Positions 4,623 to 64,000 of a stretch of DNA of 64,000 bases are shown piece after piece. The stretch lies in contig OZ243123.1 in the NCBI GenBank assembly GCA_965212505.1, positions 4,624,313 to 4,688,312 of the forward strand, read 5' to 3'. The notes under the pieces were generated by a model. It had not been told where the DNA came from. It saw only the letters and a list, made by a program, of their open reading frames with translations, and did no database searches. Position 1 is the stretch's first letter. Every line of letters begins with the position of its first letter. The DNA comes from Candidatus Multivoradales bacterium. Lineage in GTDB: Bacteria > Acidobacteriota > Thermoanaerobaculia > Multivoradales > JAHEKO01. The position numbers and the translations under genes were made by a program.

Positions 4623-4725
4623 AGGGCAGAGCCCCTCAACGGGCACAAAAAACCATCTGGCGGGCGCGAAATTTCCACTCGGGGCCCGCCAGTCCGCCCA
4701 TATTCGCTCGCATTGTCCACCCAGT

Positions 4726-24327: not shown

Positions 24328-24347
24328 CCAGGTGCCCTTGTCTTCGA

Positions 24348-25637
24348 ATGGCTGATTCTCTCTGGAAACGCTTACAAGATCGACTGAGGCGGGACCTGGA
24401 TCCCGATGAGTTTTCGACTTGGATCAAGCCACTCAAGGTCCGTAACGAAACTCCCGACTCGATCGAGCTAGAAGCACCCAACCAGCGGTTCCTCCACATG
24501 CTGGAGGCGAGCTATCGCCCCCAAGTGGACCGAGCCATCGCGGGCGTTGCAGACACCTCTTGCGAGGTCCTCTTTTCGGTCGAGCCGTTGGCTGTAACGG
24601 GTCAGATCGAGGCGCGTTCGAGCGACCAGTTCAACCCTCGTTACATTTTTGAAACATTCGTCGTCGGCAACTCGAATCAGTTCGCCCACGCCGCCTGCCG
24701 AGCCGTCGCCGAGACCCCGGCGAAGAGCTACAACCCGCTCTTCCTCTACGGAGGGGTCGGTCTCGGGAAGACGCACCTTCTGAACGCCATCGGCTGTCAG
24801 ATCGAGCGCGCTCGCCCCGACCTCAAGATCCTCTACCTGACCGCCGAGCAGTTCGTGAACGACCTGATCAGCTCGCTGCGCTTCAACAAGATGCCGGATT
24901 TCCGGGAGCGCTACCGCAGCATCGACCTGCTGCTGGTGGACGACATCCAGTTCCTGGCCAACAAGGAGCGCACGCAGGAGGAGTTCTTCCACACCTTCAA
25001 TACGCTCTATACGAGCCAGAAGCAGATCATCCTGTCGTCCGACTCCTCGCCCCGGAACATTCCGGCACTCGAAGAGAGGCTGCGGAGTCGGTTCGAGTGG
25101 GGCCTGATCGCCGACATTCAGCCGCCCGACCTCGAGACCAAGGTCGCCATCCTGCGACGGAAGGCCGGCAATGAACAGATCGAGCTGCCCGACGACGTGG
25201 CGCTCTTTATCGCCCGCCAGGTGCGCTCCAACATCCGCGAGCTAGAAGGCCTTCTGAATCGAGTGCTCGCCTTCTCCTCTCTGACCGCTAAGCCGCTGTC
25301 GCTCGAGCTGGCCAAGGAGACGCTCAAAGACATCCTGCCGCCGGAAGACCAGCGAACCACGGCCGGCGAGATCATCAAGTTCGTCGCGCGCCACTACGGC
25401 CTGCGGGTCACCGAGATCAAGAGCCGGAAGAACTCCCACCAGATTGTCTTCCCCCGTCAGGTCGCGATGTACCTCTGCAAGAAGCTGACGGACCTCTCCT
25501 TCCCCGAGATCGGCAAGCAGTTCAACGACAAGCATCACTCGACGGTGATGTACTCGGTGGAGAAGATCGAAGGTCAACGAGCGACCAACGAAGACCTCGA
25601 CCGGACCATCCAGAAGATGGTCGAGCACTTCAGCTAA
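24348..25637 (+). CDS. dnaA: Chromosomal replication initiator DnaA
   Basis: AAA+ motifs (GGVGLGKTHLLNAIG, LLLVDDIQFL), a C-terminal DNA-binding domain (VFPRQVAMYLCKKLT..HHSTVMY), and an N-terminal LWxxLxxxL. The internal ATG MADSLWKRL is preferred over the GTG at 24321. Confidence 0.95.
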   Translation: MADSLWKRLQDRLRRDLDPDEFSTWIKPLKVRNETPDSIELEAPNQRFLHMLEASYRPQVDRAIAGVADTSCEVLFSVEPLAVTGQIEARSSDQFNPRYIFETFVVGNSNQFAHAACRAVAETPAKSYNPLFLYGGVGLGKTHLLNAIGCQIERARPDLKILYLTAEQFVNDLISSLRFNKMPDFRERYRSIDLLLVDDIQFLANKERTQEEFFHTFNTLYTSQKQIILSSDSSPRNIPALEERLRSRFEWGLIADIQPPDLETKVAILRRKAGNEQIELPDDVALFIARQVRSNIRELEGLLNRVLAFSSLTAKPLSLELAKETLKDILPPEDQRTTAGEIIKFVARHYGLRVTEIKSRKNSHQIVFPRQVAMYLCKKLTDLSFPEIGKQFNDKHHSTVMYSVEKIEGQRATNEDLDRTIQKMVEHFS

Positions 25638-28559: not shown

Positions 28560-28830
28560 CGAGGGGCGAAAAAGAGACCCGGCCCACGGGGAGCGCCTGT
28601 GCGAGAGGCTGTGGATCTCCGCGTCATTCCTCTGTGAAGAACTTGTGGATTCTGACGACCCTTCGGTCTTCCTCCATCGCTCCACAACTCATCCACAGGC
28701 CTTTTCCTCGATCTGCGGTGGGCAAGAGTGCTTTCGTGGTCCGACTTCGAGTGAAATCCTTCGTTTCGACAGCCCCTACTACGACTACTTCTATACTAAG
28801 ATTCTGTTTCTTCTAGTCGGAGTAGATCTC
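28560..28830. promoter_or_regulatory. Candidate oriC: DnaA-box cluster plus AT-richer unwinding-element-like segment immediately upstream of dnaN
   Basis: TGTGGATCT (28609-28617), TGTGGATTC (28643-28651), and TCATCCACA (28688-28696) are each within 2 mismatches of TTATCCACA. They are followed by locally AT-rich CTTCTATACTAAGATTCTGTTTCTTCTAG before the dnaN Shine-Dalgarno. Confidence 0.5.
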
Positions 28831-28831
28831 T

Positions 28832-29929
28832 ATGGAAATTCGCGTAAATCGCAGTCACTTTCTGGGGGAGCTGGGTCCCATGCAAGGGATCGTGGAGCGT
28901 CGTACGACGATTCCGGTCCTCTCTCACATCCTTCTCACCACCGCCGAAGACCGTTTCAACATGGCGGCTACAGATCTGGACGTCTCGCTGACTTCGTCGT
29001 GCGATGCGGAGATCATCGGGGAAGGAGGGATTGCGGTTCAGGCGCGGAAGTTCGTCGAGATCATCCGCGCGGTCAACGCGGAAGAGGTGCGACTGGTCCT
29101 CGAGGACGAGAAGCGTCTCGGTATCGAGGCCGGGAATTCACGCTTCAAGATCAACGGCCTCTCGCCTGAGGACTTCCCAACGCTGCCGAGCGTTCCGAAC
29201 GACGACGCGGTCGAGATTCCGTTCGCTGCGGTGAAGCGCATGATCTCCAGAGTGATCTTCGCGGTGTCGACGGAAGAGTCGCGCTTCCAGCTCAACGGTG
29301 CTCTGCTGGGCTTCAAAGACGGTGCCCTCGAGATGGTCGCGACCGACGGCCACCGCCTCGCGCTGATCGAGAACGGTCTCGAGAACGGCGTCGCTGCCGA
29401 CGGCGTACTGGTACCGCGCAAGGCGCTCCAGGAGCTGATGCGCTTTGAGGGTGACGAGACGATTTCGTTCAGTCGGAGTGATCACCATCTCTCCTTCCGA
29501 CTCGGTCGCCGCGAGCTGATCTGTCGCATCCTCGAGGGGACGTTCCCCGACTACGAGCGCGTCATCTCCAAGGATAATGACAAGCAGGTGATGTTCGATC
29601 GGAAGACTCTGGCCGAGGCCGTTCAGCGCGTGGCGCTGCTCACCGGCGATCGCGCACGCGCCGTGCGGATGAGCTTCTCCGACGGCAAGCTCATGATCTC
29701 GGCGGCCAACCCGGATCTGGGCGAGGCGGTCGAGGAGCTCGAGTGCAACTTCGCGGGCGGTGAGCTGAGGATCGGCATCAACCCCGACTACATGAATCAG
29801 TTCTTGTCGGCGGTCGACACCGATCAGGTGCGCTTCGAGCTCAAGGACGAGAACACGCAGTGCGTCGGCTTCCCGGTCGACGGGTCGGACGAGCGATACC
29901 TCTGCGTGATCATGCCGATGCGCGTCTAG
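28832..29929 (+). CDS. dnaN: DNA polymerase III beta sliding clamp
   Basis: Three-domain clamp; MEIRVNRSHFLGELGPMQGIVERRTTIPVLSHILL is a typical DnaN N-terminus. Confidence 0.95.
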   Translation: MEIRVNRSHFLGELGPMQGIVERRTTIPVLSHILLTTAEDRFNMAATDLDVSLTSSCDAEIIGEGGIAVQARKFVEIIRAVNAEEVRLVLEDEKRLGIEAGNSRFKINGLSPEDFPTLPSVPNDDAVEIPFAAVKRMISRVIFAVSTEESRFQLNGALLGFKDGALEMVATDGHRLALIENGLENGVAADGVLVPRKALQELMRFEGDETISFSRSDHHLSFRLGRRELICRILEGTFPDYERVISKDNDKQVMFDRKTLAEAVQRVALLTGDRARAVRMSFSDGKLMISAANPDLGEAVEELECNFAGGELRIGINPDYMNQFLSAVDTDQVRFELKDENTQCVGFPVDGSDERYLCVIMPMRV

Positions 29930-29941
29930 TCTGACGCGCAG

Positions 29942-31015
29942 GTGACCGAGTCCACCCTCACTCGCCTCTACAGTCGCGACTTCCGCAACCTCGAAGAGCT
30001 CTCCTGGCAACCGGGCCAGGGGCGGCATCTGCTGCTCGGCGACAACGGCGCCGGCAAGACGAGCTTGCTCGAGGCGCTGTATGTGCTCGCGACGACGCGT
30101 AGCTTCCGGGCCTCCCGGCTCGCCGACTGCGCACGACACGATACGGAGAGCTTTCGCCTCGGCGGAGAGATCGCCGGAGACGCGCGAACCGAGCTCGAGC
30201 TGGTCCTGGGCCCGGAAGGAACGTCCCGTCGCCTCAACGGGAGCCCAGCGAGCCTCCAAGAGCATCTCTCGGTTCTTCCGCTGGTCGCCTGGACGGCCGC
30301 CGATCTCGAGTGGATTTCGGGCGCGCCGGCTGCGCGGCGTCGACTGATCGACCGCGGTGTCGTCGGTTTGACTCCGGCGGCCATCGTGTCGCTCTCTCGC
30401 TACCGTCGAGCCTTGGAACACAAACGGGCACTTCTCGCGCATCGGGAGACCGGACTCGAGGCTTGGAACGAGGTTCTCGCCGAGGCGGCCGACGACCTCA
30501 TTCGCCGGCGGCGTGCACACGTCGAGGCGCTATCTGAAGCGCTCGCCGAGCTACTCGAAGAGTGCGAGATCGAGCTTCCCTCGATCTCACTCACCTATCG
30601 CCCGTCTCCGGCGAACGGTGGGCGCGGTCTCGACGAGACGCTGGCGGCCATCGAGTCTCACCGTTCGAGTGAAGTCGATCGGCGGTCGCCGCTGGTCGGG
30701 CCCCACCGAGACGAGCTCGACATTCGGTGGGGCGGTCATGGTGCGCGCAAGGTCGCCTCCGCCGGAGAGAGGAAGCTTCTCGGACTTGCGATCACTGCTG
30801 CCAGTGCGCGACTGCTCGCGGCCTCGGGCCGTACTCCGGTACTACTTCTGGACGACCTGGACGCTGCGCTCGACAGTCGTCGTCTCGGCGCCGTCTGGTC
30901 GTTCTTCGAGCCCTTCGAGCAACTCTTCGTGACTTCGAATCGAGCCGCTGTATGGGAGCGATTCGACCTCTCGAGCGCCTGGAATCTCACCTGTGGAAAA
31001 CTCTCCCCACGGTAA
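29942..31015 (+). CDS. recF: DNA replication and repair protein RecF
   Basis: Walker A GDNGAGKTSLLEA, an ABC signature, and Walker B LLLDDLDA. Confidence 0.9.
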   Translation: MTESTLTRLYSRDFRNLEELSWQPGQGRHLLLGDNGAGKTSLLEALYVLATTRSFRASRLADCARHDTESFRLGGEIAGDARTELELVLGPEGTSRRLNGSPASLQEHLSVLPLVAWTAADLEWISGAPAARRRLIDRGVVGLTPAAIVSLSRYRRALEHKRALLAHRETGLEAWNEVLAEAADDLIRRRRAHVEALSEALAELLEECEIELPSISLTYRPSPANGGRGLDETLAAIESHRSSEVDRRSPLVGPHRDELDIRWGGHGARKVASAGERKLLGLAITAASARLLAASGRTPVLLLDDLDAALDSRRLGAVWSFFEPFEQLFVTSNRAAVWERFDLSSAWNLTCGKLSPR

Positions 31016-31273: not shown

Positions 31274-33700
<2,427 letters not shown>

Positions 33701-33718
33701 GAAAACGGAAGAGCACTC

Positions 33719-36226
<2,508 letters not shown>

Positions 36227-51810: not shown

Positions 51811-53025
51811 CTAGCGCCGGAGTTTCTCGATCAGGCCGAAAACCTCGTCGACCTGCTCCCAGCCGGTACGCATGAGGAACGTGTTGTTGCGCCCGTAGGA
51901 CTTGGCCCCGACGATGAAGAAGTTCGGCTCCGGGTTCACGAGCGTGTCCGCTCCGTGACTCTCCTGGGCGAGACAGTCTCCGCTGCTCGAGCCGAGGAGT
52001 GCTGCGGCAAGCTTCATCGGGCCGCTGGTGGCGTAGCACTCGTGGACTTGCAGCTGTCGGTAGAGGCTGTGATCGCCGACAAATCCTGTGAGCGAGACCA
52101 TGCGGTCTACATCGAGGGTCGTCCGCTCGCCGCTGCGATGGCGGAGTGTCACTTTGTAGCTGCCGTTGGTCGCGGAGATCGACTCGACCACCACGCCCAG
52201 CTCGGTCTTCACCCGGGAGCTTTCCTCGGCGATCTTTTGCGCACGACGAGTGAGACGGGCGCGCTCCGGCAGCGGATCGTCCGGGTCGACGTGCCAGCGA
52301 GGGCTCTCCGAGCGGAGCGCCCAGGTCACCTCGGTGCCCGGGAAGCGCTCGGCCAGCCAGGCCAGGTCGACGACTGCGGTCTGCGCTGAGTGCCCGGCGC
52401 CGACCAGGAGGATCTTTTTCCCCGCCCACCGGCTCTCGTCGCGCACGAGGTCTGGGATGTGGCGCTCGATCGCCGCGGCCGCCGCCTCTTCTCCAGGGGC
52501 TTCGATACCGCCGTCGCCGAGTGCGTTCGGGTGACCCCAAGAGCCGGTGCAGTCCAAGACGACGTCCGCGTGCTCGACCCTTTCGCGCCCATGCTCGTCC
52601 TCGACCAACAGGCGGAACGGCTGTGCGCGGCGCTCCTCGGAGCCGATCTCCTCGTGCTTGAGTAGCCCCTCGCGTCCCACTCGCTTGACCCGCGTACCGG
52701 TTCTCACGTGCGGGGCGACCTGCGGGAGCTCCGCGATCGGGGCGAAGACCGTCTCGACCAGTTCGCTACCGGTGGGACAGTCCGGGTCGTCCTCGGCTGG
52801 CAGTCCCGCTCCGGTCCCTGCCAGTGCGCGACGCATTCGAGGCGAAATGTCCAATCCCCACGGGGTGAAGAGACGCACGTGGCCCCAGCGACGAACGCTC
52901 GAACAGACCTCGGAGCCGGCTTCGTAAACAGTGAACGAGCAGTCGCTTTCTTGGGCTGCGAGGGCTGCTTCGAGTCCTACGGGGCCCGCGCCCAGAATGG
53001 CGATGTGCGGTGTTTCGGAGCTCAT
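51811..53025 (-). CDS. FAD/NAD(P)-binding oxidoreductase (flavin monooxygenase-like)
   Basis: N-terminal Rossmann IAILGAGPVGLEAALAA and a second GxGxxA (LVGAGHSAQTA). Confidence 0.7.
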   Translation of the reverse strand: MSSETPHIAILGAGPVGLEAALAAQESDCSFTVYEAGSEVCSSVRRWGHVRLFTPWGLDISPRMRRALAGTGAGLPAEDDPDCPTGSELVETVFAPIAELPQVAPHVRTGTRVKRVGREGLLKHEEIGSEERRAQPFRLLVEDEHGRERVEHADVVLDCTGSWGHPNALGDGGIEAPGEEAAAAAIERHIPDLVRDESRWAGKKILLVGAGHSAQTAVVDLAWLAERFPGTEVTWALRSESPRWHVDPDDPLPERARLTRRAQKIAEESSRVKTELGVVVESISATNGSYKVTLRHRSGERTTLDVDRMVSLTGFVGDHSLYRQLQVHECYATSGPMKLAAALLGSSSGDCLAQESHGADTLVNPEPNFFIVGAKSYGRNNTFLMRTGWEQVDEVFGLIEKLRR

Positions 53026-53028
53026 GGG

Positions 53029-54135
53029 TCAGTACCTTGAAGAAGCCCGCTCCTTGGCGGGGAGGATTTCCAAGCAGGTGGTCCACCATCCGGTGAGGAC
53101 GGTCTCGACGAACTCTTCCGGCAGCTCTTCGACTCGCATCTCTGCCGCGAGCGCGTCGTGATCGTAGGCGAGCGGAACCAGCTCGACCGCAAGCCCTTCC
53201 GATCTCTCTTCGAGCATGGCGTACCAGACGTGAGTGTTGCCATCGTTTGCCGGCCGGCCGATGACACCTACGTTGACGACGTCGCCGCCGGAGGGCAGTT
53301 TGCGGTGCCATGGCAGACCGGTGTGGGTACAAAGGAAGCCGTCCGCCTTCTCCTGGCCGAGAAGCACTTCGAGGAACGCTGTCGGTGTCGTGGAAAGAAA
53401 CAGGAACTCGTTGATCTGTCGGGGTGAGCCGTGGACCAGCAACAGTTCGCGATCGCCGACGCGCACACGCCGTCGCTCCGGCAGCTCCCCCATCCACTCC
53501 TTGAACTCGGGCGCGCAATTGCGGGCTGTGTAGTTGTACGAGAGCTCTGCGAAGTGGTTGTCGCGCGGATCCGTGTAGCCGCAGTTGCAGTCCTCGTGGC
53601 CGGTTGCCAGCGACTGCTCGTAGTTGCCCTGAAGGGTCGACACGCCCCCCTCGTCGAGCAGTGGTCGGACCCGGTTCGGATTGGGCCCGAAGCCGCCCAG
53701 ATCTCCGAGGCAGTAGATCGCCTCGGCCCCTCGCCGGGTCGCGTCGTCGAGGAGAGCGGTCAAGCCGTAGTGGTTGTTGTAGACGCCGCCAAAGACTGCG
53801 ATCCGCGAGTACGGCCCCTCTACCGGAGTCTCGTCGTCCGAAATCGCCAAGAAGCTGTCGACCTCTTCGGCGCGCCCTTCCGGCGAGAGCTCGCGACCGG
53901 CCTTCGCGGTCGCCTCTCGGAACTCACCCAGCGGCACCAACCTCTCCCCCCAGGTCGCAAGACCACGATGCACGGTCAGAGGCGACGAGTCGCGCCGCTT
54001 CTTGTCTCGATCGTCCTTTGGAGTTCTCGGGCTCATTCGGAGGAACCAAGAGAGGGGCTCGTCAAACAACTGGCCATCGACGCAAGTCCGACAGGAGGGT
54101 TTGTCAAGGGAGGGCTCTCCCTTGACCCCAATCAA
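53029..54135 (-). CDS. Metallophosphoesterase (calcineurin-like) family protein
   Basis: GDLGGFGPNP and GNYE/GH motifs typical of the calcineurin fold. Four-nt gap to the upstream oxidoreductase. Confidence 0.7.
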   Translation of the reverse strand: MIGVKGEPSLDKPSCRTCVDGQLFDEPLSWFLRMSPRTPKDDRDKKRRDSSPLTVHRGLATWGERLVPLGEFREATAKAGRELSPEGRAEEVDSFLAISDDETPVEGPYSRIAVFGGVYNNHYGLTALLDDATRRGAEAIYCLGDLGGFGPNPNRVRPLLDEGGVSTLQGNYEQSLATGHEDCNCGYTDPRDNHFAELSYNYTARNCAPEFKEWMGELPERRRVRVGDRELLLVHGSPRQINEFLFLSTTPTAFLEVLLGQEKADGFLCTHTGLPWHRKLPSGGDVVNVGVIGRPANDGNTHVWYAMLEERSEGLAVELVPLAYDHDALAAEMRVEELPEEFVETVLTGWWTTCLEILPAKERASSRY

Positions 54136-54153
54136 CTCTCTCCCTTGATTCGG

Positions 54154-54951
54154 TCACGTCTTGCAACTCACTCCGAACACATGGCACGTCCAGCAGGCCG
54201 GATGCCCCATCTCGAACGGCCCCAGCGTGTCGGCGATCGCCTCGCCCATCTTGCCGTCGGGCTCGTTGACCAGAATCGGGCAGACCCACACCCCTTGATC
54301 GGTGACCATTCGGCAGCCGCTGCATTGCAAGTGCGACCAGCCGTCGGATGGCGTGTCGCCCTCGCGCAACCGCTGCCAGCTCTCGTAGGCGCCGCCGCGT
54401 TCGGCCTCGGCGCCCATGCGGAAGACGGGTAGCATCTTGAGCCGCGGCTTCTCGATGCCCATCTCGCTCAGGAGCTCGAAGAAGCGCAGGCGACCCTCTC
54501 GAGAGGCGTTTTGATCGTGCACCTCGGTGACCGTGATCACGGGATTGATCCCCGCTCGGTAGAGGTTGGAGATCCCGCCGAGAATCCGCACGAACGTCCC
54601 TTCGCCTCGAATCGGGTCGTTCGTGGCGGCGTCGTAGCCGTCCATCGACACTCTGAAGTCGAGAGAGTAGTCGCTCGCCGTGGCGAGTTTCGCGAGTCGC
54701 TCGCAGCGCACCGGATCGAGAAGTAGACCGTTGGTGAGAACCGTCGCCGGGCCGTACTCGAGAGTCCTCGCGAGGATGGCCTCCATCTCGGAATTGAGGA
54801 ACGGCTCGCCGCCGGTGAAGTAGTACTCCTTCACCCCCAGGCGCGCGCCCTCTTCGAGATAGGGCACAACCTCTTCCAACGACAACCCATCGTGAGTGTG
54901 GTTGGTCGGCGAGCTCGAGACGAAGCAGTGCGTGCACGCGAGATTGCACAC
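54154..54951 (-). CDS. arsS: ArsS-like radical SAM protein (arsenosugar-biosynthesis type), Cys-rich C-terminus; true start probably upstream (frame open to ~55104 without ATG/GTG/TTG)
   Basis: CNLACTHCF radical SAM cluster motif, a GGEP SAM-binding motif, and a C-terminal Cys-rich tail (CSGCRMV...CP...HPACWTCHVFGVSC). Positioned immediately downstream of arsM. Confidence 0.7.
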   Translation of the reverse strand: MCNLACTHCFVSSSPTNHTHDGLSLEEVVPYLEEGARLGVKEYYFTGGEPFLNSEMEAILARTLEYGPATVLTNGLLLDPVRCERLAKLATASDYSLDFRVSMDGYDAATNDPIRGEGTFVRILGGISNLYRAGINPVITVTEVHDQNASREGRLRFFELLSEMGIEKPRLKMLPVFRMGAEAERGGAYESWQRLREGDTPSDGWSHLQCSGCRMVTDQGVWVCPILVNEPDGKMGEAIADTLGPFEMGHPACWTCHVFGVSCKT

Positions 54952-55034
54952 CGTACCGGCGATCTGAAACCAGAGGGTGTCCAGCGAGCGGAGCTCGACC
55001 TTCGGTGCAGCCCGCGCGACCTCGATCGGCTGAC

Positions 55035-56189
55035 TCAGCAGCAGTCTCCCGGTTCGCAGCAGGCCTTGGCCTCGGTGGTTGCGTCGTATTCGAGCCCTTT
55101 CGTTTCACGAGGGTGCCGAAGGACCGTGCGCGAGCAGTCGAACGGCTCGGCGGCCTCGAGCGGAACCTCCTCGAGCGGATCGACGAAGTCGAAGTGCTCG
55201 CGATAGGGCTCGCGCTTGTAGATGTTGTAGGTCTTGTCGCAGACAGCGTAGCGGTGGCCACGCTCCATGCGGTGATCGTCGTCGTCGAGGACCTCTTTGA
55301 ACGGACCGCGATAGACCACCGCCTGGTTGCGCTCGACGCAGGGCCCTTCTTTGCCCTTGAACGCCTCGACGGTGAGCGAACGGAACTCGATGCCCTCGAC
55401 GGTGCGCCACGGCTCTTCCTGCCGTTCGAGCACTCGCACGCCGTAGAAGCCGACCTCTTCGAACGCTTTCAGAAATCCGTCTTCGGTGAAGGCGCCAGAG
55501 ATACAGCCACTCCAGAGATCCGCGTCCGTCTGCATGGAGAGCGGTACATCTTCGTCGCTCACAATGTCCGAGATCACCGCGCGACCGCCGTTGTTCAGCA
55601 CTCGGTAGATCTCTTCGAAGAGCTCGCGCTTGCGCGAGTTGTCGACCAGGTTCAGCACGCAGTTCGACACCACCACGTCGACCGAGTCGTCGGCGACCAA
55701 CGGCCGGCTCCGGCGAAGCTCTTCGCTCAACCCTTCGATCTCGAGCAGGCCCTCGACGTCGGTAACCGGCGTCGAGCCGAGGCGCTCCTCGAGTAGGTCG
55801 AGGTCTAGGGCGAGGTCCTGAATCCGCCCTCGGCGAAATTCGACGTTCGAGAAGCCGATGCGCTCGGCGACCACCGGTACGTTGCGACGTGCGACATCGA
55901 GCATGTCGGGCGTCATGTCGACGCCGATCACCTTGCCCTGCGCTCCCACCACCTGGGCTGCGATGAAGCAGATCTTCCCTGTTCCGCTCCCCAGGTCGAG
56001 CACGGTCTCGCCTTCGTTCAGGAAGCGGCTCGGATCACCGCAACCGTAGTCGCGCTCGAGAACCTCGCTCGGGATCACCTCCAAGTAGCGAGGGTCGTAG
56101 TCGACCGGGCAGCAGAGCTCCGGCACCTGGGTCTGGGCGCCGGCGCTGTAGCGCTCTTTGACGGCCCGCTCTGTATTGGCAACTGTCAT
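55035..56189 (-). CDS. arsM: Arsenite S-adenosylmethionine methyltransferase ArsM with Cys-rich C-terminal tail
   Basis: VKERYSAGAQ..CCPVDYD (N-terminal Cys pair), GCGDP, VLDLGSGTG, GVDMTPDMLDVAR, VVVSNCVLNL, and WSGCISGA (third As-binding Cys) match the characterized ArsM pattern. C-terminus ends KACCEPGDCC. Confidence 0.85.
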   Translation of the reverse strand: MTVANTERAVKERYSAGAQTQVPELCCPVDYDPRYLEVIPSEVLERDYGCGDPSRFLNEGETVLDLGSGTGKICFIAAQVVGAQGKVIGVDMTPDMLDVARRNVPVVAERIGFSNVEFRRGRIQDLALDLDLLEERLGSTPVTDVEGLLEIEGLSEELRRSRPLVADDSVDVVVSNCVLNLVDNSRKRELFEEIYRVLNNGGRAVISDIVSDEDVPLSMQTDADLWSGCISGAFTEDGFLKAFEEVGFYGVRVLERQEEPWRTVEGIEFRSLTVEAFKGKEGPCVERNQAVVYRGPFKEVLDDDDHRMERGHRYAVCDKTYNIYKREPYREHFDFVDPLEEVPLEAAEPFDCSRTVLRHPRETKGLEYDATTEAKACCEPGDCC

Positions 56190-56306
56190 CTAGATTCCAC
56201 TCCAGTCTCTGGCGGAGCCCTCTCCGCCGTTCAAGAAGTCGTCTCGCATCGATGCGCGAGGGGGCGACCGGCTTGGCGGTCGCGCGTCGTTGGGTCTCGG
56301 TCGGCT

Positions 56307-57038
56307 CTAGGCCGGCGGACCGCGAAGCGATCGAGTCGGTCGATAGCCAGTTGCGGTGACGCCCACGAGAGCGGGTGCCAGGGGGGTACAGAGGGCGAGG
56401 AGCGCGGCGCGCAACTCTCGCAAGAGCCCCTGCCAGCGCGGTGCCTGTTCTCGAGCGATCCAGGCGAGAAGATCTCGAGCGCGATCGAGATCACGCAATG
56501 GCTCGAGAAGGTAGACCTCGAGGCCGCGCTCTTCGAGCGCCCTGCGAAGGGTGGCGAGCGTAGCGTGGCAACACCAGTGAACGCTCGCTAGCTCAGCATC
56601 GAGGCAGATGTTGGTTGCGAGCAGGTAGAAGCCGCCGTCGGGAGACGGTCCGAGTACGACGCGCCGGCGTGAAGACCCGAGCCGGCCGAGCGCTTCCCGC
56701 ACGTGGCGAGACTCAAGCCCCGGCACGTCGGAGCCCACCGCCACGACCGGTCCGTCCGCTTCCAGGCGTGCTGCCGAAAGAGCGTTTCGGAATCTCTCGC
56801 CGAACGAGGCGCCCGTCTGGCGAATCATGTGAGCCCCGGGCTCGGTCAGCTGCGGCTCGGTCGTAGCAACCTGAAGCCGGCAACCGGAAGTTCGCCCGGC
56901 GGTCAAAGCCGCGTCGAGGCTCTCCCGCAGAACGCTTCGTGTCAGCCCGTCGAATCGTCTCGGCAGGAGCCGCCGCTGCGCACACTCACTCGCGGGAGTT
57001 CGGGCAAAGACGAGCAGACTCGGCTGGTGGGCTGTCAT
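56307..57038 (-). CDS. DUF2064 (TIGR04282-type, glycosyltransferase-like nucleotidyltransferase fold) protein associated with arsenosugar clusters
   Basis: LLVFARTP N-terminus and DGGFYLLA motif typical of DUF2064. Located upstream of arsM on the same strand. Confidence 0.6.
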   Translation of the reverse strand: MTAHQPSLLVFARTPASECAQRRLLPRRFDGLTRSVLRESLDAALTAGRTSGCRLQVATTEPQLTEPGAHMIRQTGASFGERFRNALSAARLEADGPVVAVGSDVPGLESRHVREALGRLGSSRRRVVLGPSPDGGFYLLATNICLDAELASVHWCCHATLATLRRALEERGLEVYLLEPLRDLDRARDLLAWIAREQAPRWQGLLRELRAALLALCTPLAPALVGVTATGYRPTRSLRGPPA

Positions 57039-57128
57039 CTAGAAGGTGGGTACGAAGCGAGGGCGTTTGCGGATCGCTTCGGATGCGGCAGTCTATCTTG
57101 GCTCTCCGTTCGCTATGATCTCCCGGCT

Positions 57129-57548
57129 TTGGCCAGATACCTCGCGATCTCGCTGCCGCTCCTGGTACTCCTGATGGGCGGATTCACCTTCGTACTCGGC
57201 GCCGTCGGATTGAGCCCCTCTCTCGCCTCGTTGGAGCGAGCGGGTCTGGCGCGGCCCGAGGCGCTGCCGATCGGCCTCTCCGTTGCGGGTTGGCTGATCG
57301 AGACGCTCGCCCTGACGGCGCTCTTTCTCTTGATTCAAGATCGCACCGGCGCCTGGTGGATCGACGGCCTGGTCGCGGGCATGATCGGATGGGTCTTCCG
57401 CGGTCCGATCCTGGTGTTGACGATCGTTTCGACCAGTCGTCTCGGCGTCGACCCCTGGTGGCCGATGGCCCTGCGGCTCCTGCTGCTCTACTCGATCTGT
57501 GGCCTCGCCCTCGCGATGATCGCCCGATCGGTTGGGCTCGAGCGATGA
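57129..57548 (+). CDS. Small multi-TM membrane protein, hypothetical (TTG start; ATGA-coupled to the type III PKS)
   Basis: Four predicted TM helices. The stop overlaps the PKS start. No ATG in frame; TTG proposed. Confidence 0.4.
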   Translation: MARYLAISLPLLVLLMGGFTFVLGAVGLSPSLASLERAGLARPEALPIGLSVAGWLIETLALTALFLLIQDRTGAWWIDGLVAGMIGWVFRGPILVLTIVSTSRLGVDPWWPMALRLLLLYSICGLALAMIARSVGLER

Positions 57549-58627
57549 GCGGCGCACCACGAGTGGTCGCGGTCGGCAGTGCGTTTCCAGAGCACTACTA
57601 CGAGCAGGAAGAGCTCCTGGCGGCCTTCCGCCGCGTCTGGGCGCCGAAGATCTTCAACCTTGCACGACTCGAACGACTCCACCGTAACGTATTGGTCGGG
57701 AATCGCCATCTGGCACTGCCGCTCGAGAAGTACGAAGAGCTCGAGACGTGGGGCCAGGCGAACGACGCTTGGATCGAGGTGGCGCAGGACGTCGGCGCGC
57801 GCGCTGTCTCCGACGCCCTCGAGCGCGCCGGTCTGTCGGTCGAGGACCCTGCGGCGATCTTCTTCGTGACGGTCACCGGTGTCGCCACGCCGTCGATCGA
57901 TGCTCGGTTGATCAACCGACTCGGTCTCTCGTCGAGCATCAAGCGCAACCCGATCTTTGGTCTCGGCTGTGTGGCGGGAGCCGCCGGCATCGCCCGCGCG
58001 TCGGACTACGTGCGTGCCTTCCCCGATCAGGTCGCTGTACTGCTCTCGGTCGAGCTCTGCTCCTTGACCCTCCAGCAGAAGGACTTCTCGGTGGCCAACC
58101 TGATCTCCTCCGGACTCTTCGGAGACGGTGCGGCCGCAGCGGTTGTTGCCGGGGCCGAGTGCCCGTTGAACGACGCCCCTAGGGGGCCTCGAGTGGTCGC
58201 GACTCGCTCGATCTTCTACCCCGACTCCGAGCGGGTGATGGGCTGGGACATCTCGGAGAGCGGCTTCCAAGTTGTGCTCTCACCAGAGGTCCCTGAAGTC
58301 GTGCGACAGTTTCTTCGGCGCGACGTCGATGCGTTTCTCGGCGATCTCGACTTGGAGGTTGGCGACATCAACTCGTGGGTTGCCCACCCCGGCGGTCCGA
58401 AGGTCCTTCAGGCGATGGAAGAGTCGCTCGAGATCGAGGGCGGCGAGAAGGGGGCACTCGGCGTCACCTGGCGGAGCCTCAAAGAGGTCGGCAACCTCTC
58501 CTCCACCTCCGTGCTGCTAGTGCTCCAAGAGACGATGGCCGAGCACCGCCCCGAGCCTGGGAGCCTAGGAATGCTCCTCGCCCTCGGTCCGGGTTTCTGT
58601 TCGGAACTTGTGCTCCTCGAGTGGTAG
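57545..58627 (+). CDS. Type III polyketide synthase (chalcone/stilbene synthase superfamily)
   Basis: Catalytic Cys in GLGCVAGAAG, His in WVAHPGGPKVL, and Asn in GNLSSTSV. About 361 aa. Confidence 0.85.
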   Translation: MSGAPRVVAVGSAFPEHYYEQEELLAAFRRVWAPKIFNLARLERLHRNVLVGNRHLALPLEKYEELETWGQANDAWIEVAQDVGARAVSDALERAGLSVEDPAAIFFVTVTGVATPSIDARLINRLGLSSSIKRNPIFGLGCVAGAAGIARASDYVRAFPDQVAVLLSVELCSLTLQQKDFSVANLISSGLFGDGAAAAVVAGAECPLNDAPRGPRVVATRSIFYPDSERVMGWDISESGFQVVLSPEVPEVVRQFLRRDVDAFLGDLDLEVGDINSWVAHPGGPKVLQAMEESLEIEGGEKGALGVTWRSLKEVGNLSSTSVLLVLQETMAEHRPEPGSLGMLLALGPGFCSELVLLEW

Positions 58628-59101
58628 CTACGGCGTCGCGTCGAGGAGCGAGCACCAGAAGGTCACGGCGGTGAGCTTCTTGTTGCCCTTGAGGTTCAGC
58701 TCGGCGACCAGCGCCACCTGCTGGGCGAAGCCCGCTCGACGCGGGATCGGATAGTCGAAGGTCACGATGCCGTTCTTGTTGGTCTTGGCGGTCTGATCTT
58801 CGAACACTTCGATCTCCGCGTAGGTGTTGGCGTCGACCAGTCGCGCCGAGACGGTCCCCTTCACGCCTTTGCGCGGCTCGCTGCTCACAAGGGCGTCGAT
58901 TGCACAGGTGGCGGACAGCTCGTCCTCGAGGATGCCGCCAACCACGACAGGGCCAGGTTCCTCGACGTCCTTGGCCTTGGTCTCCTGGTCGTGGGTGACC
59001 GTCGACGCGGCGTTGTTCGTTCCGGTATCGGCGCCCAGAGGAGAGAGGGCGAAGAGGAAGAACACGAGCGCGAAAGCGAGCCTGCACGAGAGCTTCGTCA
59101 T
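58628..59101 (-). CDS. Small secreted hypothetical protein
   Basis: Signal peptide (MTKLSCRLAFALVFFLFALSPLGA). Paralogous to the next gene. Confidence 0.5.
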   Translation of the reverse strand: MTKLSCRLAFALVFFLFALSPLGADTGTNNAASTVTHDQETKAKDVEEPGPVVVGGILEDELSATCAIDALVSSEPRKGVKGTVSARLVDANTYAEIEVFEDQTAKTNKNGIVTFDYPIPRRAGFAQQVALVAELNLKGNKKLTAVTFWCSLLDATP

Positions 59102-59112
59102 TCGTCGTCCTC

Positions 59113-59616
59113 CTAGCTGCAGGCCGGGTCGCTCGACCCGTTGCAGAGATCGCCAAAGCCGTAGATACAGCGCAAGCGAATCTCGTCGGTTTTCTTCTTG
59201 TTGACGGGGTCGGCGGTCGCGGTGAGCACCGAGTTCGCGGGAGCGGCGCCGAGAAGTGGCGGCACCACGATCGGCTTCGTCCATCCGTCTTTCTTCGTGC
59301 GCTTGGTTTCCGTGGTGTCACTCAAGAGATTGCGCTCCGCATCGTGAATACGGAAGCGCACGTCCGACTTGACTCCTTTGAGAGCGCCGAACACCGCGCA
59401 GCGGATCTCCTTGGCCTGGCCGCTGGAGGCCGAGAGTGGTATCAGCACGGTCAGCACACCGCTCGAGAAGGTGTTGGCGGCCGCCTCGGCGTCTTTGGTC
59501 TGTGCGGCCTCGGCCTCGCTGAAGCGACGGACCTCGGCGGCACCGGCTGAGTCAACCGGGGCGAACGAGCACAGCACGACCGCGACGAGCGAGAGGATGG
59601 TGCACCTGCGAGTCAT
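59113..59616 (-). CDS. Small secreted hypothetical protein (paralog)
   Basis: Signal peptide. Shares the C..F.AL.KGVK...R..DA...........T.KT.K.G pattern with the neighbouring gene. Confidence 0.5.
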   Translation of the reverse strand: MTRRCTILSLVAVVLCSFAPVDSAGAAEVRRFSEAEAAQTKDAEAAANTFSSGVLTVLIPLSASSGQAKEIRCAVFGALKGVKSDVRFRIHDAERNLLSDTTETKRTKKDGWTKPIVVPPLLGAAPANSVLTATADPVNKKKTDEIRLRCIYGFGDLCNGSSDPACS

Positions 59617-59685
59617 CGTTCCTCCTTTCCTCTCGGGTGAGCGCATACAGCCTACAGCACGCCTCTCCGGCGGATGAAAGGAGCC

Positions 59686-60522
<837 letters not shown>

Positions 60523-60747
60523 GGTGATCGAACCTATCGCGGATCTTGAGGACCGACAATTGTAGCTTCCGCTTGGCGAAGCGGGATCGTGGATCGGGGG
60601 ACCGTCTGTGCCGTGAAGCGCCAACATCGCGGATGCCGCTGCATTCCCGGTGGATAGAATCGAATGTACTCCTACAACTTGCAGCGACTCGTCCCTCGAC
60701 TGCCGGTTGTGGTCTAGAAACCCGCTTGTGAGGGGTGGAGGTGTTAG

Positions 60748-61872
60748 ATGCCAAGACGAGCAGCACTCATGGCGGCGCAGACGATTCTGATTCTCTGGGC
60801 ACATCAGGCATTGGCGACTGCCCCGCTCCCGGTGACGCCAAAAGCCGAAGCTGGTGGGGGTGTCGCCACGATGTTTACGCCCTGCCCGACGTTCCATTGG
60901 GTAGAGAGCCCTGAAGCCCGTCGATACGAGCTGGTCGTCTTCGACGCGGAGGCGTCCGAGCTCTATCGGGTCGAGCTCCCCGCGGGCGCCCAGATGTGGA
61001 CTCCGACAATCGACCGTTGTTTTGAGCCTGGTCTTCAGTACGCCTGGGCTTTGCGCGCCGTCGTAGACGAGTCGACTGAGCTCTGGTCCGATGTTGTGCT
61101 CTTTCGGGTCACGCGCCCAGGCGCTTTGACGAGAGGCCGGCGATCCGACAATGAAGAGCTTCCCATCTCGCCGGCTCCCAGTGAGTCGAGCGGCACTCAG
61201 TCGCCGCCGCCGAGTTCACCGCTGCCGACCGAAGGCCCTGGTCTCCTCGCCCCAGAGCGTCAGCGAGTCGTGTCGGGCGAGCAAACGAAGACGGCCGGTA
61301 TCTCGATCAGCTCTGCGATCAGCGTCGACGACAACCTCCACGCGACAACCGGTGACACGCCGACGCTCCGCCTGGAGCAAGACGGCTCTGGCAGCTTCAC
61401 TCCACAGACTTGGGACATCCGAGCGAACGAGACAGACTTCCGCATCGTAGATGTCGACGCCGACGAGACGCGCTTCAGGATCGATCGATCGAGCGGGCTG
61501 GTAAGCGGCGCCTTCGCAATCGCCTCCGATTGGATCACGCCAAGCACCTATACCGGTTCCGATGTCTTTGGGGTCCTCAATTTTCGAGCGGTTATCTCCG
61601 CCCCGGAGATCACCCAGGAGGTGATCGATTCGGGCGCAGTTGTCGTCTATGGGAATCTGCTGTCCTATGCGGTGGGTTTCTGGCCGCCAGGAGAGGTCGC
61701 CCAGTTGCCGATCACGACGGTTTATGTCGCGGGCGACATTTTCTACGAGGACCGATGGTCGTACCGCTTGAACCCGGGTTCGCTGGAGATTCACGTCACG
61801 AATAACGAGGATCTCTACTCGACGTTCCCTTCGGGGGCAGAGTTTCGGTACGTGGTGATACCGCCCCCTTAG
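60748..61872 (+). CDS. Secreted hypothetical protein
   Basis: Signal peptide (LILWAHQALATAP); protein-like composition. No recognisable domain. Confidence 0.5.
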   Translation: MPRRAALMAAQTILILWAHQALATAPLPVTPKAEAGGGVATMFTPCPTFHWVESPEARRYELVVFDAEASELYRVELPAGAQMWTPTIDRCFEPGLQYAWALRAVVDESTELWSDVVLFRVTRPGALTRGRRSDNEELPISPAPSESSGTQSPPPSSPLPTEGPGLLAPERQRVVSGEQTKTAGISISSAISVDDNLHATTGDTPTLRLEQDGSGSFTPQTWDIRANETDFRIVDVDADETRFRIDRSSGLVSGAFAIASDWITPSTYTGSDVFGVLNFRAVISAPEITQEVIDSGAVVVYGNLLSYAVGFWPPGEVAQLPITTVYVAGDIFYEDRWSYRLNPGSLEIHVTNNEDLYSTFPSGAEFRYVVIPPP

Positions 61873-62069
61873 CGGCCACGTGACGCCGCGTCCGACTTGG
61901 CCGGAGTGGAACGGCGTGCGAGCCCGAGATCAGGTGGCCCGAGGCCTGCGGTCCGAGCTTCAAGATGACGAGAAGTCGCAGGAGACAGGGTCAGCGGCTG
62001 AGGAGGGCGAAACGTCTCGAGCGCCGAGGTCGCGCGCGAGTGCGAGAAGCCGCGACATAATCACCCGCG

Positions 62070-62648
62070 GTGCTGGACATCCTCGCTCTCGATAGCCGAA
62101 CCCTTTACCTGCTCCTGATCGTCGCGATTGTTCTCGAGCGGCTGGTGGAGCTGCGCATCACCCAACGGAACCTCGCCTGGGCGATGCAGAACGGCGGCAT
62201 CGAAGCGGGGCGCGGGCACTACCCGGTGATGGTCGCGCTGCACACGGCGTTCTTGATTGCCGGGCCGGCCGAAGTCCTCTTGCTCGACAGACCGTTCATC
62301 GCGGGGCTCGGCTTCCCGATGCTGGCGGTCGTCCTTCTCGGCATGGGGCTCCGCTACTGGGCGGTCACGACGCTCGGCAAGCGATGGACGACACGGGTGG
62401 TGTGCGTGCCGGGCCTGCCGGTCGTCACGGGTGGGCCGTATCGATTCGTGCGCCACCCAAACTACGTGGCGGTGGTGCTCGAGATCTTCGCGCTGCCGCT
62501 CGTCCACTCAGCGTGGCTGACGGCGCTGGTGTTCACGGTTGCGAACCTCTTCCTGCTGCGCACTCGTATTCGGGTCGAGGAAGAGGCGCTCGAGGAGTTC
62601 AACGACTACCGAGAAGGTTTTCGCGCGGCGCGGGCGAGTTCGACATGA
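62070..62648 (+). CDS. Isoprenylcysteine carboxyl methyltransferase (ICMT) family membrane methyltransferase
   Basis: Multi-TM with the C-terminal GPYRFVRHPNY...E motif characteristic of ICMT/PEMT-fold methyltransferases. Confidence 0.8.
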   Translation: MLDILALDSRTLYLLLIVAIVLERLVELRITQRNLAWAMQNGGIEAGRGHYPVMVALHTAFLIAGPAEVLLLDRPFIAGLGFPMLAVVLLGMGLRYWAVTTLGKRWTTRVVCVPGLPVVTGGPYRFVRHPNYVAVVLEIFALPLVHSAWLTALVFTVANLFLLRTRIRVEEEALEEFNDYREGFRAARASST

Positions 62649-62884
62649 CGGCCGAAGAGATCCTGAGCGAGATTCGACAGCTCGCGCGCGAACGGTTGGC
62701 GTTGGAGATGACGGTCGAGCCGGCGAGTCGGCTGGTCGAAGATCTGGGGCTCGATTCGCTGCGACTCCAGGCGCTCGCGATCGAGGTCGAGAATCACTTT
62801 CGGATCTGCCTCGAGCCCGAGGACGAAGAGTCGATCCGCACCATCGGCGATCTCGTCTCGACGATCGACGGGAAGTTGGCGTGA
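62644..62884 (+). CDS. Acyl carrier protein
   Basis: About 80 aa with the phosphopantetheine attachment motif LGLDSL. Overlaps the ICMT stop and the FAAL start. Confidence 0.75.
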
Positions 62885-64000
62885 CGGCGGAGCCATCGCT
62901 CGTGGCGCGAGTCGCCGGCACCTTGAGCGAGTCCCTGGCGCGAGCGGCGCTCGATCCCGCGACCGGCGTACGACTCGTCGATCGCCGGGAGGCCGAGACC
63001 TGGCTGCCGTGGTCCGAAGTGCTGTCGACTGCGGAGCGGGTTGCGGGAGGGCTGCAGGCGTCCGGCGTCGAGCCCGGAGACCGAGTCGGTCTGATCTTCG
63101 GTACCGGTCGTGAGCTGATCGAAGCCTACTTCGGCGCCTCGCTCGCCGGAGCCATCCCGGCCAGCCTCGCGCCGCCACCGCGACTCGGCGGCCTCGAGGG
63201 TTACGTCGAGCGGGTGAGGGCGATGTTGAGCGCCGCCGACGCGAAGCTGGTTCTCGCCGAAGACCGATCGAAGCGCCGCCTCGGAGACGCGGTCGATCCG
63301 ACTCCGATGCGAACACTTGCGGAGCTCCCGGAAGGAAAACGAGTCGATCTGCCGCCCGTGAGTCCAGGCGACGTGGCGATGATTCAGTTCTCTTCGGGAA
63401 CCGAGCTCAAACCCAAGCCGGCGGCGCTTTCGCATCGAGCGATTCTCGGACAGGCGAGGCTCTTGAACGGCTACTGGCCGGAGACCGGCGTCACGCACCG
63501 CGGCTGCTCTTGGCTGCCGCTCTACCACGACATGGGGTTGATCGGCTGCCTGTTGGTGGCTCTCGAGCGGCCGGGGGAGTTGGTACTCCTGCCGCCCGAG
63601 GTGTTCGCGGCGCGACCGGCGATCTGGCTGCGAACGATCTCGCGTTACCAGGCAACCATCTCACCCGCCACGAACTTCGCCTATGCCCACTGTCTCGACT
63701 CCATTCGCGACGACGAGCTAGAAGGGGTCGATCTGTCGAGCTGGAGCGTGGCGCTCAACGGCGCCGAGCCGATCAGCGCCGACGTCATGCGCCGCTTCGC
63801 TGAGCGCTTCGCCCGATGGGGCTTCCCCGCCGAAGCGTTGACACCGGTTTACGGCCTCGCGGAGGCGTCGTTGGCGGTGACGTTTTCGGAGGTCGACTCG
63901 CCCTTCTCGAGTCGCCGCTTCGATCGCGAGCGACTCGCCGAGGGCTGTCGCGTGAAGGAAGACTCGGACGGGCGGGAGCTGGTTTCGGTCGGCTCGCCGG
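62881..64000 (+). CDS. Fatty acyl-AMP ligase / AMP-dependent synthetase (continues beyond window end)
   Basis: Manual translation from the GTG at 62881 gives an AMP-binding enzyme. The motif IQFSSGTELKPKPAALSH resembles the T[SG]-S[G]-G-[ST]-[TE]-G-x-[PALIVM]-K signature and is followed by YGLAEAS. No stop before 64000, so it is absent from the ORF track. Confidence 0.75.
   Translation, partial: MTAEPSLVARVAGTLSESLARAALDPATGVRLVDRREAETWLPWSEVLSTAERVAGGLQASGVEPGDRVGLIFGTGRELIEAYFGASLAGAIPASLAPPPRLGGLEGYVERVRAMLSAADAKLVLAEDRSKRRLGDAVDPTPMRTLAELPEGKRVDLPPVSPGDVAMIQFSSGTELKPKPAALSHRAILGQARLLNGYWPETGVTHRGCSWLPLYHDMGLIGCLLVALERPGELVLLPPEVFAARPAIWLRTISRYQATISPATNFAYAHCLDSIRDDELEGVDLSSWSVALNGAEPISADVMRRFAERFARWGFPAEALTPVYGLAEASLAVTFSEVDSPFSSRRFDRERLAEGCRVKEDSDGRELVSVGSP

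Follow-up and report, generated by a model that had tools for sequence, protein, structure and literature searches.

The 64,000-nucleotide stretch of contig OZ243123.1 from Candidatus Multivoradales bacterium analyzed here (the window) contains two operons that lie head-to-head. A minus-strand operon, anchored by an enzyme of the radical S-adenosylmethionine (SAM) type and including an ArsM-like methyltransferase, diverges from a plus-strand operon for a type III polyketide synthase (PKS) and associated enzymes of phenolic lipid synthesis. The original prediction, made from this sequence, was that an organoarsenical cluster and a lipid cluster form a single arsenolipid pathway here. We found that the junction between the two operons is conserved in dozens of relatives of this soil bacterium and that the genes on its two sides are distributed as modules. 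The explanation that we favor, tentatively and at chances that we put a little short of even, is that the divergent operons are a conserved bidirectional unit of the class Thermoanaerobaculia (Acidobacteriota) with shared regulation and separate products. The physical linkage is supported, and probably a regulatory linkage as well.

Genes were mapped in the 64-kb window from long open reading frames (ORFs) of high GC3 combined with Pfam and NCBIfam profile searches. The models for ArsM (384 amino acids) and PKS (360 amino acids) are identical to database proteins of one single contig, and the gene layout, including the spacer between the operons, is therefore correct. The minus strand carries a tight array of five genes in the order DUF2064, ArsM-like, radical SAM, metallophosphoesterase-like and flavoprotein; the plus strand carries the PKS together with genes for an acyl carrier protein (ACP) and a fatty acyl-AMP ligase (FAAL).

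56307 to 57038, minus strand: DUF2064 protein, CofC/MobA-like in its nucleotidyl- or glycosyl-transferase fold; opens the operon here, accessory (Pfam DUF2064, 68 bits)
55035 to 56189, minus strand: ArsM-like SAM methyltransferase, accessory gene (NF040538, 346 bits; Methyltransf_31, 100.7 bits)
54154 to about 55040, minus strand: radical SAM enzyme, conserved anchor of the operon (Pfam Radical_SAM, 74.8 bits)
53029 to 54135, minus strand: metallophosphoesterase-like protein, PF1291/PH1616 type (Pfam Metallophos_2, 30.6 bits)
51811 to 53025, minus strand: two-dinucleotide-binding flavoprotein, Pyr_redox_2/3, FMO/YpdA-like, last gene of the operon (PF13738, 49 bits; PF07992, 48 bits)
57129 to 57548, plus strand: polytopic membrane protein of 139 amino acids, no family; TTG start, stop overlapping the PKS start (ATGA)
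57545 to 58627, plus strand: type III PKS, long-chain alkylpyrone/alkylresorcinol type (Chal_sti_synt_N, 75 bits; Chal_sti_synt_C, 62.5 bits; cut-offs 27)
58628 to 61872, both strands: insertion of four unrelated genes between the PKS and ICMT genes (ORFs)
62070 to 62648, plus strand: ICMT/PEMT-family membrane O-methyltransferase (Pfam ICMT, 96 bits); stop overlapping the ACP ATG
62645 to 62884, plus strand: ACP (PP-binding, 27 bits; DSL motif in the translation)
62881 to 64000, plus strand: FAAL, cut by the window end; GTG start overlapping the ACP stop (AMP-binding, 166 bits)

Co-localization was assessed from both sides of the junction. One genome per species was scanned with the radical SAM family alignment, which gave 80 loci with 10-kb flanks, nearly all of them in metagenome-assembled genomes (MAGs) of Thermoanaerobaculia or other Acidobacteriota, with a few Longimicrobiales MAGs and one Acidobacteria bacterium Mor1. 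A subset of 56 loci from species-level genomes has at least 8 kb of upstream flank (full-flank loci). In the reverse direction, a PKS-anchored metagenome scan yielded 26 contigs with at least 4 kb upstream. The conserved neighborhood on which the original prediction depended was found in both sets: the PKS operon stands head-to-head with the radical SAM operon in 37 of the 56 full-flank loci, and 18 of the 26 PKS-anchored contigs carry the radical SAM operon beside the PKS. Searching the 80 radical SAM-anchored loci by tblastn with every window protein gave the following numbers of loci with each gene beside the radical SAM gene.

Metallophosphoesterase-like protein: 74 of 80 loci
Flavoprotein: 55 of 80 loci
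PKS: 46 of 80 loci
Membrane protein: 38 of 80 loci
ICMT: 37 of 80 loci
ACP: 35 of 80 loci
FAAL: 33 of 80 loci
ArsM: 33 of 80 loci
DUF2064: 31 of 80 loci

The radical SAM and metallophosphoesterase-like genes are the invariant core of the minus-strand operon, and the FMO-like flavoprotein gene usually follows them. ArsM, present in 24 of the 56 full-flank loci, is accessory and lies outside this conserved core. Additions to the core, namely ArsM, a transporter of the Pst (or PiT) type and/or DUF2064, occur in about 40% of species.

The original prediction had placed the arsenic-type cluster about 90 bp from the opposite-strand operon of the membrane protein and PKS, and the distance from the DUF2064 ATG (57038) to the membrane-protein TTG (57129) is indeed a spacer of 90 bp (57039 to 57128). 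We compared this head-to-head junction across the related loci with a junction inside the PKS operon and with one in the chromosomal backbone.

Head-to-head spacer: median gap 126 to 199 bp; above 700 bp in 2 of 47 genome loci and 3 of 25 metagenome loci
PKS-ICMT junction, within the PKS operon: median gap 15 to 24 bp; above 700 bp in 7 of 36 genome loci and 6 of 57 metagenome loci
Flavoprotein-HAD junction, backbone: median gap about 2.1 to 2.2 kb; above 700 bp in 26 of 32 genome loci and 11 of 12 metagenome loci

The junction between the two operons is thus protected at least as well as an intra-operon junction and far better than the backbone.

This comparison bears directly on the possibility that the operons are neighbors by descent only, that is, unrelated operons that stood side by side near the ancestral Thermoanaerobaculia replication origin and were simply retained. 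The window does contain an origin region, with dnaN (28826 to 29929), recF (29930 to 31015), gyrB (31274 to 33700) and gyrA (33701 to 36226), and the cumulative GC-skew minimum falls at about 28 to 32 kb of the window; these features together place the cluster near the replication origin. A 451-amino-acid ORF at 24285 to 25637 may be dnaA. The same backbone (gyrA and onward to M20, CYTH, NTP-transferase and HAD genes) flanks the cluster in most related loci, and PKS presence tracks backbone presence (25/6/7/10), so the conservation is partly plain synteny within one class. Outside this lineage no PKS stands beside the radical SAM genes, and in three loci (L018, L071 and L073) the PKS operon is simply absent at the same site. 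Descent alone nevertheless seems to us rather improbable, since foreign genes have entered between the flavoprotein and HAD genes in the 26 of 32 loci listed above, against 2 of 47 for the head-to-head spacer, and since two further observations, an inverted membrane-protein gene that stays inside the unit and canonical-type ArsM genes next to radical SAM-less PKS operons (both described below), speak against it. In the same three loci, a 505-amino-acid B12-type radical SAM gene, which usually ends the PKS operon, abuts the radical SAM operon, so that the PKS genes behave like a segment inserted or deleted between two radical SAM genes that have been kept.

The sequence of the spacer points to back-to-back promoters. 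The 90-bp spacer holds two conserved -10-like motifs, which are found again in the spacers of 36 relatives irrespective of the gene that heads the radical SAM operon. On the PKS side, GTTCGCTATGATC lies at 57108 to 57120, 8 nt upstream of the membrane-protein TTG, and its TATGAT box ends about 10 nt before that TTG; a TAGACT-type box is found at about 57090 to 57098 on the minus strand. In most relatives a CGTATAnnCT box precedes the first ATG of the radical SAM operon by about 10 to 15 nt. The position of both boxes suggests transcripts that are leaderless or have a very short leader. The promoter-like motifs are conserved even where the spacer is down to 51 bp. Scanning 51 to 64 kb for consensus promoters and terminators gave nothing above chance. 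A reading of the spacer motifs as a Pho box or ArsR operator was dropped, the matches being weak and the conserved sequence partly coding. In many relatives a five-codon mini-ORF (MIxxL) overlaps the membrane-protein TTG.

The small membrane protein encoded at the junction has no Pfam or NCBIfam match, and a homologue search returned 25 close relatives only, none of them annotated. A local profile search among the related loci found 85 homologous ORFs, and the protein was found only in loci of the set. Its gene runs in the same direction as the PKS gene in 55 two-operon loci and 17 PKS-only loci; in five loci it is inverted and runs with the radical SAM operon. The five inverted cases (L011, at 9482 to 9913, L015, L019, L096 and L104) belong to one subclade, and there the gene precedes the radical SAM operon at a distance of 58 bp. 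A universal partnership of the membrane protein with the core radical SAM genes was rejected, since L062 is the only PKS-less locus that has its gene.

The two operons behave as modules rather than as one inseparable set. Core radical SAM genes without a PKS were found in 19 of the 56 full-flank loci, and 6 to 8 of the 26 PKS-anchored contigs carry the PKS operon without the radical SAM genes. Neighbors of the PKS operon in the latter are unrelated to one another and include a desaturase with an enoyl-CoA hydratase, a glycosyltransferase, type II secretion genes and a PQQ/ankyrin protein. Within the radical SAM operon, the accessory modules DUF2064, ArsM and a 3.4-kb PstSCAB-type ABC transporter sit downstream of the promoter-like motif; they are arranged in three or more orders and either precede the radical SAM gene or follow the metallophosphoesterase-like gene, and a radical SAM protein tree showed that the presence of ArsM and Pst differs between sister loci. 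In Acidobacteria bacterium Mor1 (L060, CP011806) a PHO4/PiT transporter (4741 to 5973) takes the place of Pst behind ArsM; it follows DUF2064, flavoprotein and ArsM genes on the other strand from the genes for the radical SAM and metallophosphoesterase-like proteins. In a clade without the PKS, to which Longimicrobiales MAGs belong, the genes for ArsM, the radical SAM enzyme, the metallophosphoesterase-like protein and the flavoprotein stay together as one unit. In two loci of this clade (L043, 7908 to 8633; L058, 7862 to 8635) a protein with cyclic-nucleotide-binding and FHA domains is encoded directly upstream of ArsM and is a possible regulator of the operon. PKS and ArsM presence are uncorrelated across the 56 loci (2x2 table 15/22/9/10; odds ratio about 0.76).

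Two PKS operons without the radical SAM core genes have a canonical-type ArsM gene as a neighbor. In L151 an ArsM (4367 to 5269) that scores 288 bits on the arsenite methyltransferase model (cut-off 263) is divergent from the membrane-protein/PKS pair, and since the HAD backbone gene is retained at this locus, a different arsM has apparently replaced the radical SAM operon there in its entirety. In L110 an ArsM (218 to 1293) with 246 bits, just under the same cut-off, has an ArsR-type regulator beside it and lies 2.2 kb upstream of the PKS operon. If one arsM is assumed per roughly 4000 genes, two such cases among about 12 loci are very unlikely to arise by chance (below 1e-3, a rough estimate). 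Together with the inversion of the membrane-protein gene in five loci and the spacer motifs, these two loci are signs of a functional tie between the operons.

How close that tie is can be judged from the same data. In a single pathway, an organoarsenical made by ArsM and the radical SAM enzyme would be attached to, or built on, the PKS-derived phenolic lipid, giving a new arsenolipid class. As variants of this idea, a SPASM-like radical SAM enzyme could make a carbon radical on the alkyl chain that captures As(III), or DUF2064 could link an arsenosugar-like unit glycosidically to the phenol; the arsenic would enter through the cluster's own Pst or PiT transporter and be methylated by ArsM. 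We consider such a pathway unlikely. It would agree with a head-to-head pairing as tight as an intra-operon junction, with the independent ArsM genes of L151 and L110, and with a membrane-protein gene common to both transcription units in some loci. It would also agree with the situation in L164, where the radical SAM-PKS pair is kept together despite a changed right-hand context, and there is a precedent in bisenarsan, an organoarsenical to which an acyl group from a PKS is joined (PMC12159101, PMC4943196). However, ArsM and the core radical SAM genes occur in clades free of the PKS, so their substrate cannot be PKS-specific; the PKS operon also occurs alone; and the presence of ArsM does not correlate with that of the PKS. 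No enzyme that would join arsenical and lipid could be identified, and no candidate for this step is consistently present across the loci: many PKS-positive loci lack DUF2064, and there are PKS-negative loci that have it. The pairing is limited to Thermoanaerobaculia, four unrelated genes interrupt the PKS operon in this genome, and the characterized homologous lipid clusters need no arsenic (PMC10896814). The linkage proposed in the original prediction therefore stands as a physical and probably regulatory one, whereas the proposal of one arsenolipid pathway is opposed by the uncorrelated ArsM and PKS genes, the separate occurrence of the modules and the lack of an evident joining enzyme. Its premise that the genes for arsenolipid synthesis are not yet assigned agrees with the searchable literature, in which we found no gene cluster assigned to this function. 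Separate products, as in the reading that we favor, are further suggested by the radical SAM-less PKS operons in unrelated contexts.

The changed context of L164 (= L005; 11545 to 20921) is a bacterial microcompartment locus, which follows the radical SAM gene there in place of the metallophosphoesterase-like and flavoprotein genes. This locus encodes DeoC/RpiB, an aldehyde dehydrogenase, two purine nucleoside phosphorylases, a pyrimidine nucleoside phosphorylase and a cytidine deaminase. The nucleoside enzymes would be of interest if the product of the radical SAM enzyme were a 5'-modified adenosine.

The radical SAM enzyme has about 295 amino acids and a CX3CX2C motif (CNLACTHC) near residue 30. 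Six further conserved cysteines in its C-terminal part suggest an auxiliary cluster domain, possibly SPASM-like. Its best NCBIfam match is the uncharacterized Rv1681 family (99 bits). The family is large, with more than 7000 homologues, the best 120 of which share 73 to 85% identity with the window enzyme, and it recurs in soil and sediment metagenomes; one more homologue entry is the source genome's own shortened radical SAM gene call. Sequence matches in the PDB are generic only (SkfB, BlsE, viperin and MoaA), and an AlphaFold model from a 20-sequence alignment was poor (mean pLDDT 57, with the C-terminal domain below 35).

The original prediction had paired ArsM with ArsS, and this did not hold: the enzyme scores 44.8 bits on the ArsS model TIGR04167 against a cut-off of 300, with residues 38 to 185 (the radical SAM core) alone aligning, and the pair is not the conserved element of the operon. 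Two side features of ArsS are present, namely the canonical CX3CX2C motif and an arsM directly upstream (in the window and in 33 of the 80 loci). An assignment to ArsL was likewise rejected. ArsL, which transfers the 3-amino-3-carboxypropyl group of SAM to As(III), has 428 amino acids with its CX3CX2C motif at residues 194 to 201 (PMC8552651), which differs from the enzyme studied here in both length and motif position. By profile score and architecture, the radical SAM enzyme is neither ArsS nor ArsL and belongs to a separate and very conserved new family.

The start of the radical SAM gene in the window is unusual. In its frame (54940 to 55110, minus strand) the stretch from the upstream stop to the CX3CX2C motif is free of ATG, GTG and TTG; CTG and ATC codons only are found there, overlapping the arsM stop. 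The database call for the source genome (P0009) has 237 amino acids and is without the cluster motif. A near-cognate start, translational coupling, a sequencing error or loss of the start codon are possible explanations.

The methyltransferase encoded upstream is ArsM-like and, as judged from profile scores, falls outside all curated ArsM subfamilies. It remains below every curated cut-off: that of the arsinothricin-type model NF040538 is 500, PRK11873 gives 201 bits against 263, and AsSugarArsM gives 119 against 400. The protein has the As(III)-binding cysteines (Cys26/27, Cys50, Cys177 and Cys229), with a conservation of at least 93% among 45 homologues, and a conserved cysteine-rich C-terminal tail (CCEPGDCC). 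The DUF2064 protein scores 94.6 bits on TIGR04282, the "arsenosugar biosynthesis glycosyltransferase" model, with a cut-off of 134. For the metallophosphoesterase-like protein, the probable start is the Met codon at 54036. Its matches in the PDB (2gju, 1nnw and 3rqz) are uncharacterized PF1291/PH1616-type proteins, the sequence of its motif I, GGVYNNH, is degenerate, and Cys183 and Cys185 (a Cys-x-Cys pair) and Cys354 are invariant in 94 homologues. The flavoprotein matches an ArsO-like NCBIfam model weakly (21 bits), and a PDB sequence search found no relative of it; it is a candidate oxygenase for a trivalent organoarsenical.

An arsenic, that is organoarsenical, role of this operon has in our estimate a somewhat better than even chance. 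This reading is the best one because ArsM has been recruited repeatedly in differing arrangements, two unrelated phosphate/arsenate transporter families occur in the operon, and the DUF2064 protein is of the arsenosugar type. Also in its favor are the conserved ArsM cysteines, the three invariant cysteines of the metallophosphoesterase-like protein, and the fact that ArsM and the core genes travel together without the PKS in Longimicrobiales and other MAGs. The canonical-type ArsM genes of L151 and L110, next to radical SAM-less PKS operons, lend it support as well.

On the plus strand, the predicted genes correspond to an Srs/Ftp-type phenolic lipid cluster, with a PKS, a membrane O-methyltransferase, FAAL and ACP, and with a hydroxylase in relatives. 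The PKS carries the motifs of the catalytic Cys/His/Asn triad in its translation (GLGCVAG, HPGGPKV and GNLSSTS), and its nearest solved structure is Pks11 of M. tuberculosis (327 bits), followed by CylI. The original prediction noted an FAAL-ACP and a membrane methyltransferase nearby. These genes are present as a translationally coupled trio of ICMT-family methyltransferase, ACP and FAAL, 3.4 kb beyond the PKS; they are not contiguous with it, the four unrelated genes lying between. The ACP scores 35 to 49 bits on several NCBIfam ACP models, below the cut-off of each, and the best model for the FAAL, which is partial at the window end, is NF006624 (254 bits against a cut-off of 600). In most loci a FAD_binding_3 hydroxylase is encoded downstream of the FAAL, a position beyond the window end here; in the relative L081 the operon goes on after the FAAL with this hydroxylase and then the B12-type radical SAM gene.

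The four inserted genes comprise two for small secreted proteins (minus strand, no family), one for a tandem-FKBP lipoprotein (minus strand) and one for a 374-amino-acid secreted protein (plus strand, no family). The lipoprotein scores 164 bits on FKBP_C and passes the BamJ model NF053689 (144 against a cut-off of 100). These genes are unconserved in the related loci, except for the FKBP gene in the closest relative (L001), and are not part of the conserved unit.

Under the favored reading, the plus-strand operon would be an ordinary phenolic-lipid pathway. The FAAL would load a fatty acid onto the ACP, the Pks11-like PKS would extend the ACP-bound acyl chain to an alkylresorcinol or alkylpyrone, and the ring would be O-methylated and then, in relatives, hydroxylated towards an alkylquinone. 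The minus-strand operon would convert arsenic to a non-volatile organoarsenical: the radical SAM enzyme would form the As-C bond, as ArsS and ArsL do, ArsM would add methyl groups to arsenic, and the flavoprotein would oxidize As(III) to As(V). The back-to-back promoters would share regulation, plausibly on exposure to arsenate or phosphate limitation, and the products would remain separate. From the features described above we infer that the core radical SAM genes act on arsenic, which chemistry each step involves and that the operons are co-regulated.

Several points weigh against this reading. Each proposed step is predicted from sequence and gene context, and the claim of co-regulation is based on geometry and short motifs only. 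Inherited gene order accounts for part of the conservation, the cluster being embedded in a strongly syntenic backbone at 16 to 28 kb from the replication origin, and in the loci surveyed the PKS-radical SAM pairing was seen in Thermoanaerobaculia only. In the window, none of ArsR, ArsC and Acr3 is encoded within the cluster, and the radical SAM gene, with no canonical start, could be inactive or expressed only poorly. Neither ArsM nor a transporter is found near half of the radical SAM operons, and 23 of the 56 full-flank loci are without ArsM, Pst and DUF2064, so the core genes may not act on arsenic.

The last point leads to a further alternative, in which the core genes are unrelated to arsenic. 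They would tailor the phenolic lipid or quinone, or act on something else, and the ArsM and Pst cassettes would exploit a convenient promoter, perhaps one induced by phosphate starvation. Alkylresorcinols can serve as phosphorus-free membrane lipids, as in Azotobacter cysts, which would suit this alternative, and Pst and PiT are primarily phosphate transporters. The failure of the radical SAM enzyme on the ArsS model and its architecture, unlike that of ArsL (PMC8552651), are also compatible with a non-arsenic function. We nevertheless regard this alternative as quite improbable. ArsM lies immediately upstream of the core genes in 9 of the 19 PKS-less full-flank loci, including another phylum; ArsM is inserted at several positions of the operon, not just at the promoter; and a DUF2064 of the arsenosugar-associated type co-occurs.

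Comparison with known systems places the two operons near, and outside, several described pathways. In the arsenosugar pathway of Synechocystis (Cheng et al., 2021, as cited in PMC12159101), ArsM acts with ArsS, and radical SAM chemistry adenosylates dimethylarsenite. The operon studied here resembles that system, as described there, in that arsM adjoins a radical SAM gene, in the co-occurrence of a DUF2064/TIGR04282-type protein, which NCBI links to arsenosugar synthesis, and in the presumed logic of methylation plus radical As-C bond formation. It differs in that its radical SAM enzyme is outside the ArsS family, in an ArsM nearer the arsinothricin type than the arsenosugar type (346 and 119 bits, respectively), in constant metallophosphoesterase-like and flavoprotein partners that are not part of the ArsS system in that account, and in an ArsM that is dispensable in about half of the loci. 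The arsQML operon of Burkholderia gladioli (PMC8552651) likewise has arsM followed directly by a radical SAM gene in a short SAM-dependent pathway, and the best ArsM model here is of the arsinothricin type. In contrast to arsQML, the operon in the window has no ArsQ permease, its ArsM is below the equivalog cut-off, and its shorter radical SAM enzyme combines an N-terminal motif with a cysteine-rich C-terminal domain.

The biosynthetic gene cluster for bisenarsan and related arseno-organic compounds in Streptomyces lividans and S. coelicolor (PMC4943196, PMC12159101) also brings a PKS, arsenic-related genes and a phosphate/phosphonate-type ABC transporter together at one locus. There, however, the As-C bond comes from an AroA/PEP-mutase-like route and not from SAM enzymes, the PKS is of type I and not type III, ArsR regulators and resistance genes are present that the window lacks, and no protein is homologous to the core genes described here. 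The plus-strand operon is in turn comparable to SrsABC of Streptomyces griseus, to FtpA with its FAAL and ACP in Myxococcus xanthus, and to the mycobacterial Pks11/polyketide quinone genes (PMC10896814), with which it shares the type III PKS, membrane O-methyltransferase, ACP and FAAL and, in relatives, the flavin hydroxylase. Unlike those clusters, it has an extra 139-amino-acid membrane protein translationally coupled to the PKS and a conserved divergent operon of the radical SAM/ArsM type; no such partner is mentioned in the literature consulted on them (PMC10896814).

Only two radical SAM routes to As-C bonds, ArsS and ArsL, have been described (PMC12159101), and the searchable literature yielded no description of the present gene cluster. 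The radical SAM family is thus a candidate third route, which in different lineages recruits ArsM and two unrelated types of phosphate/arsenate transporter. Compact natural variants, such as L013 without ArsM, and L015 and L050 with ArsM and Pst, are suited to constructs. Were the operons a single pathway, their genes would be the first in bacteria to be identified for a lipid-soluble arsenic compound, and a biosynthetic link to the lipid would open arsenolipid biosynthesis to experiment. If the link is one of regulation alone, the radical SAM operon, which in Thermoanaerobaculia, an abundant and essentially uncultured class, is locked in a head-to-head arrangement with the phenolic-lipid genes, would still be a strong lead to new organoarsenic chemistry in the Acidobacteriota.

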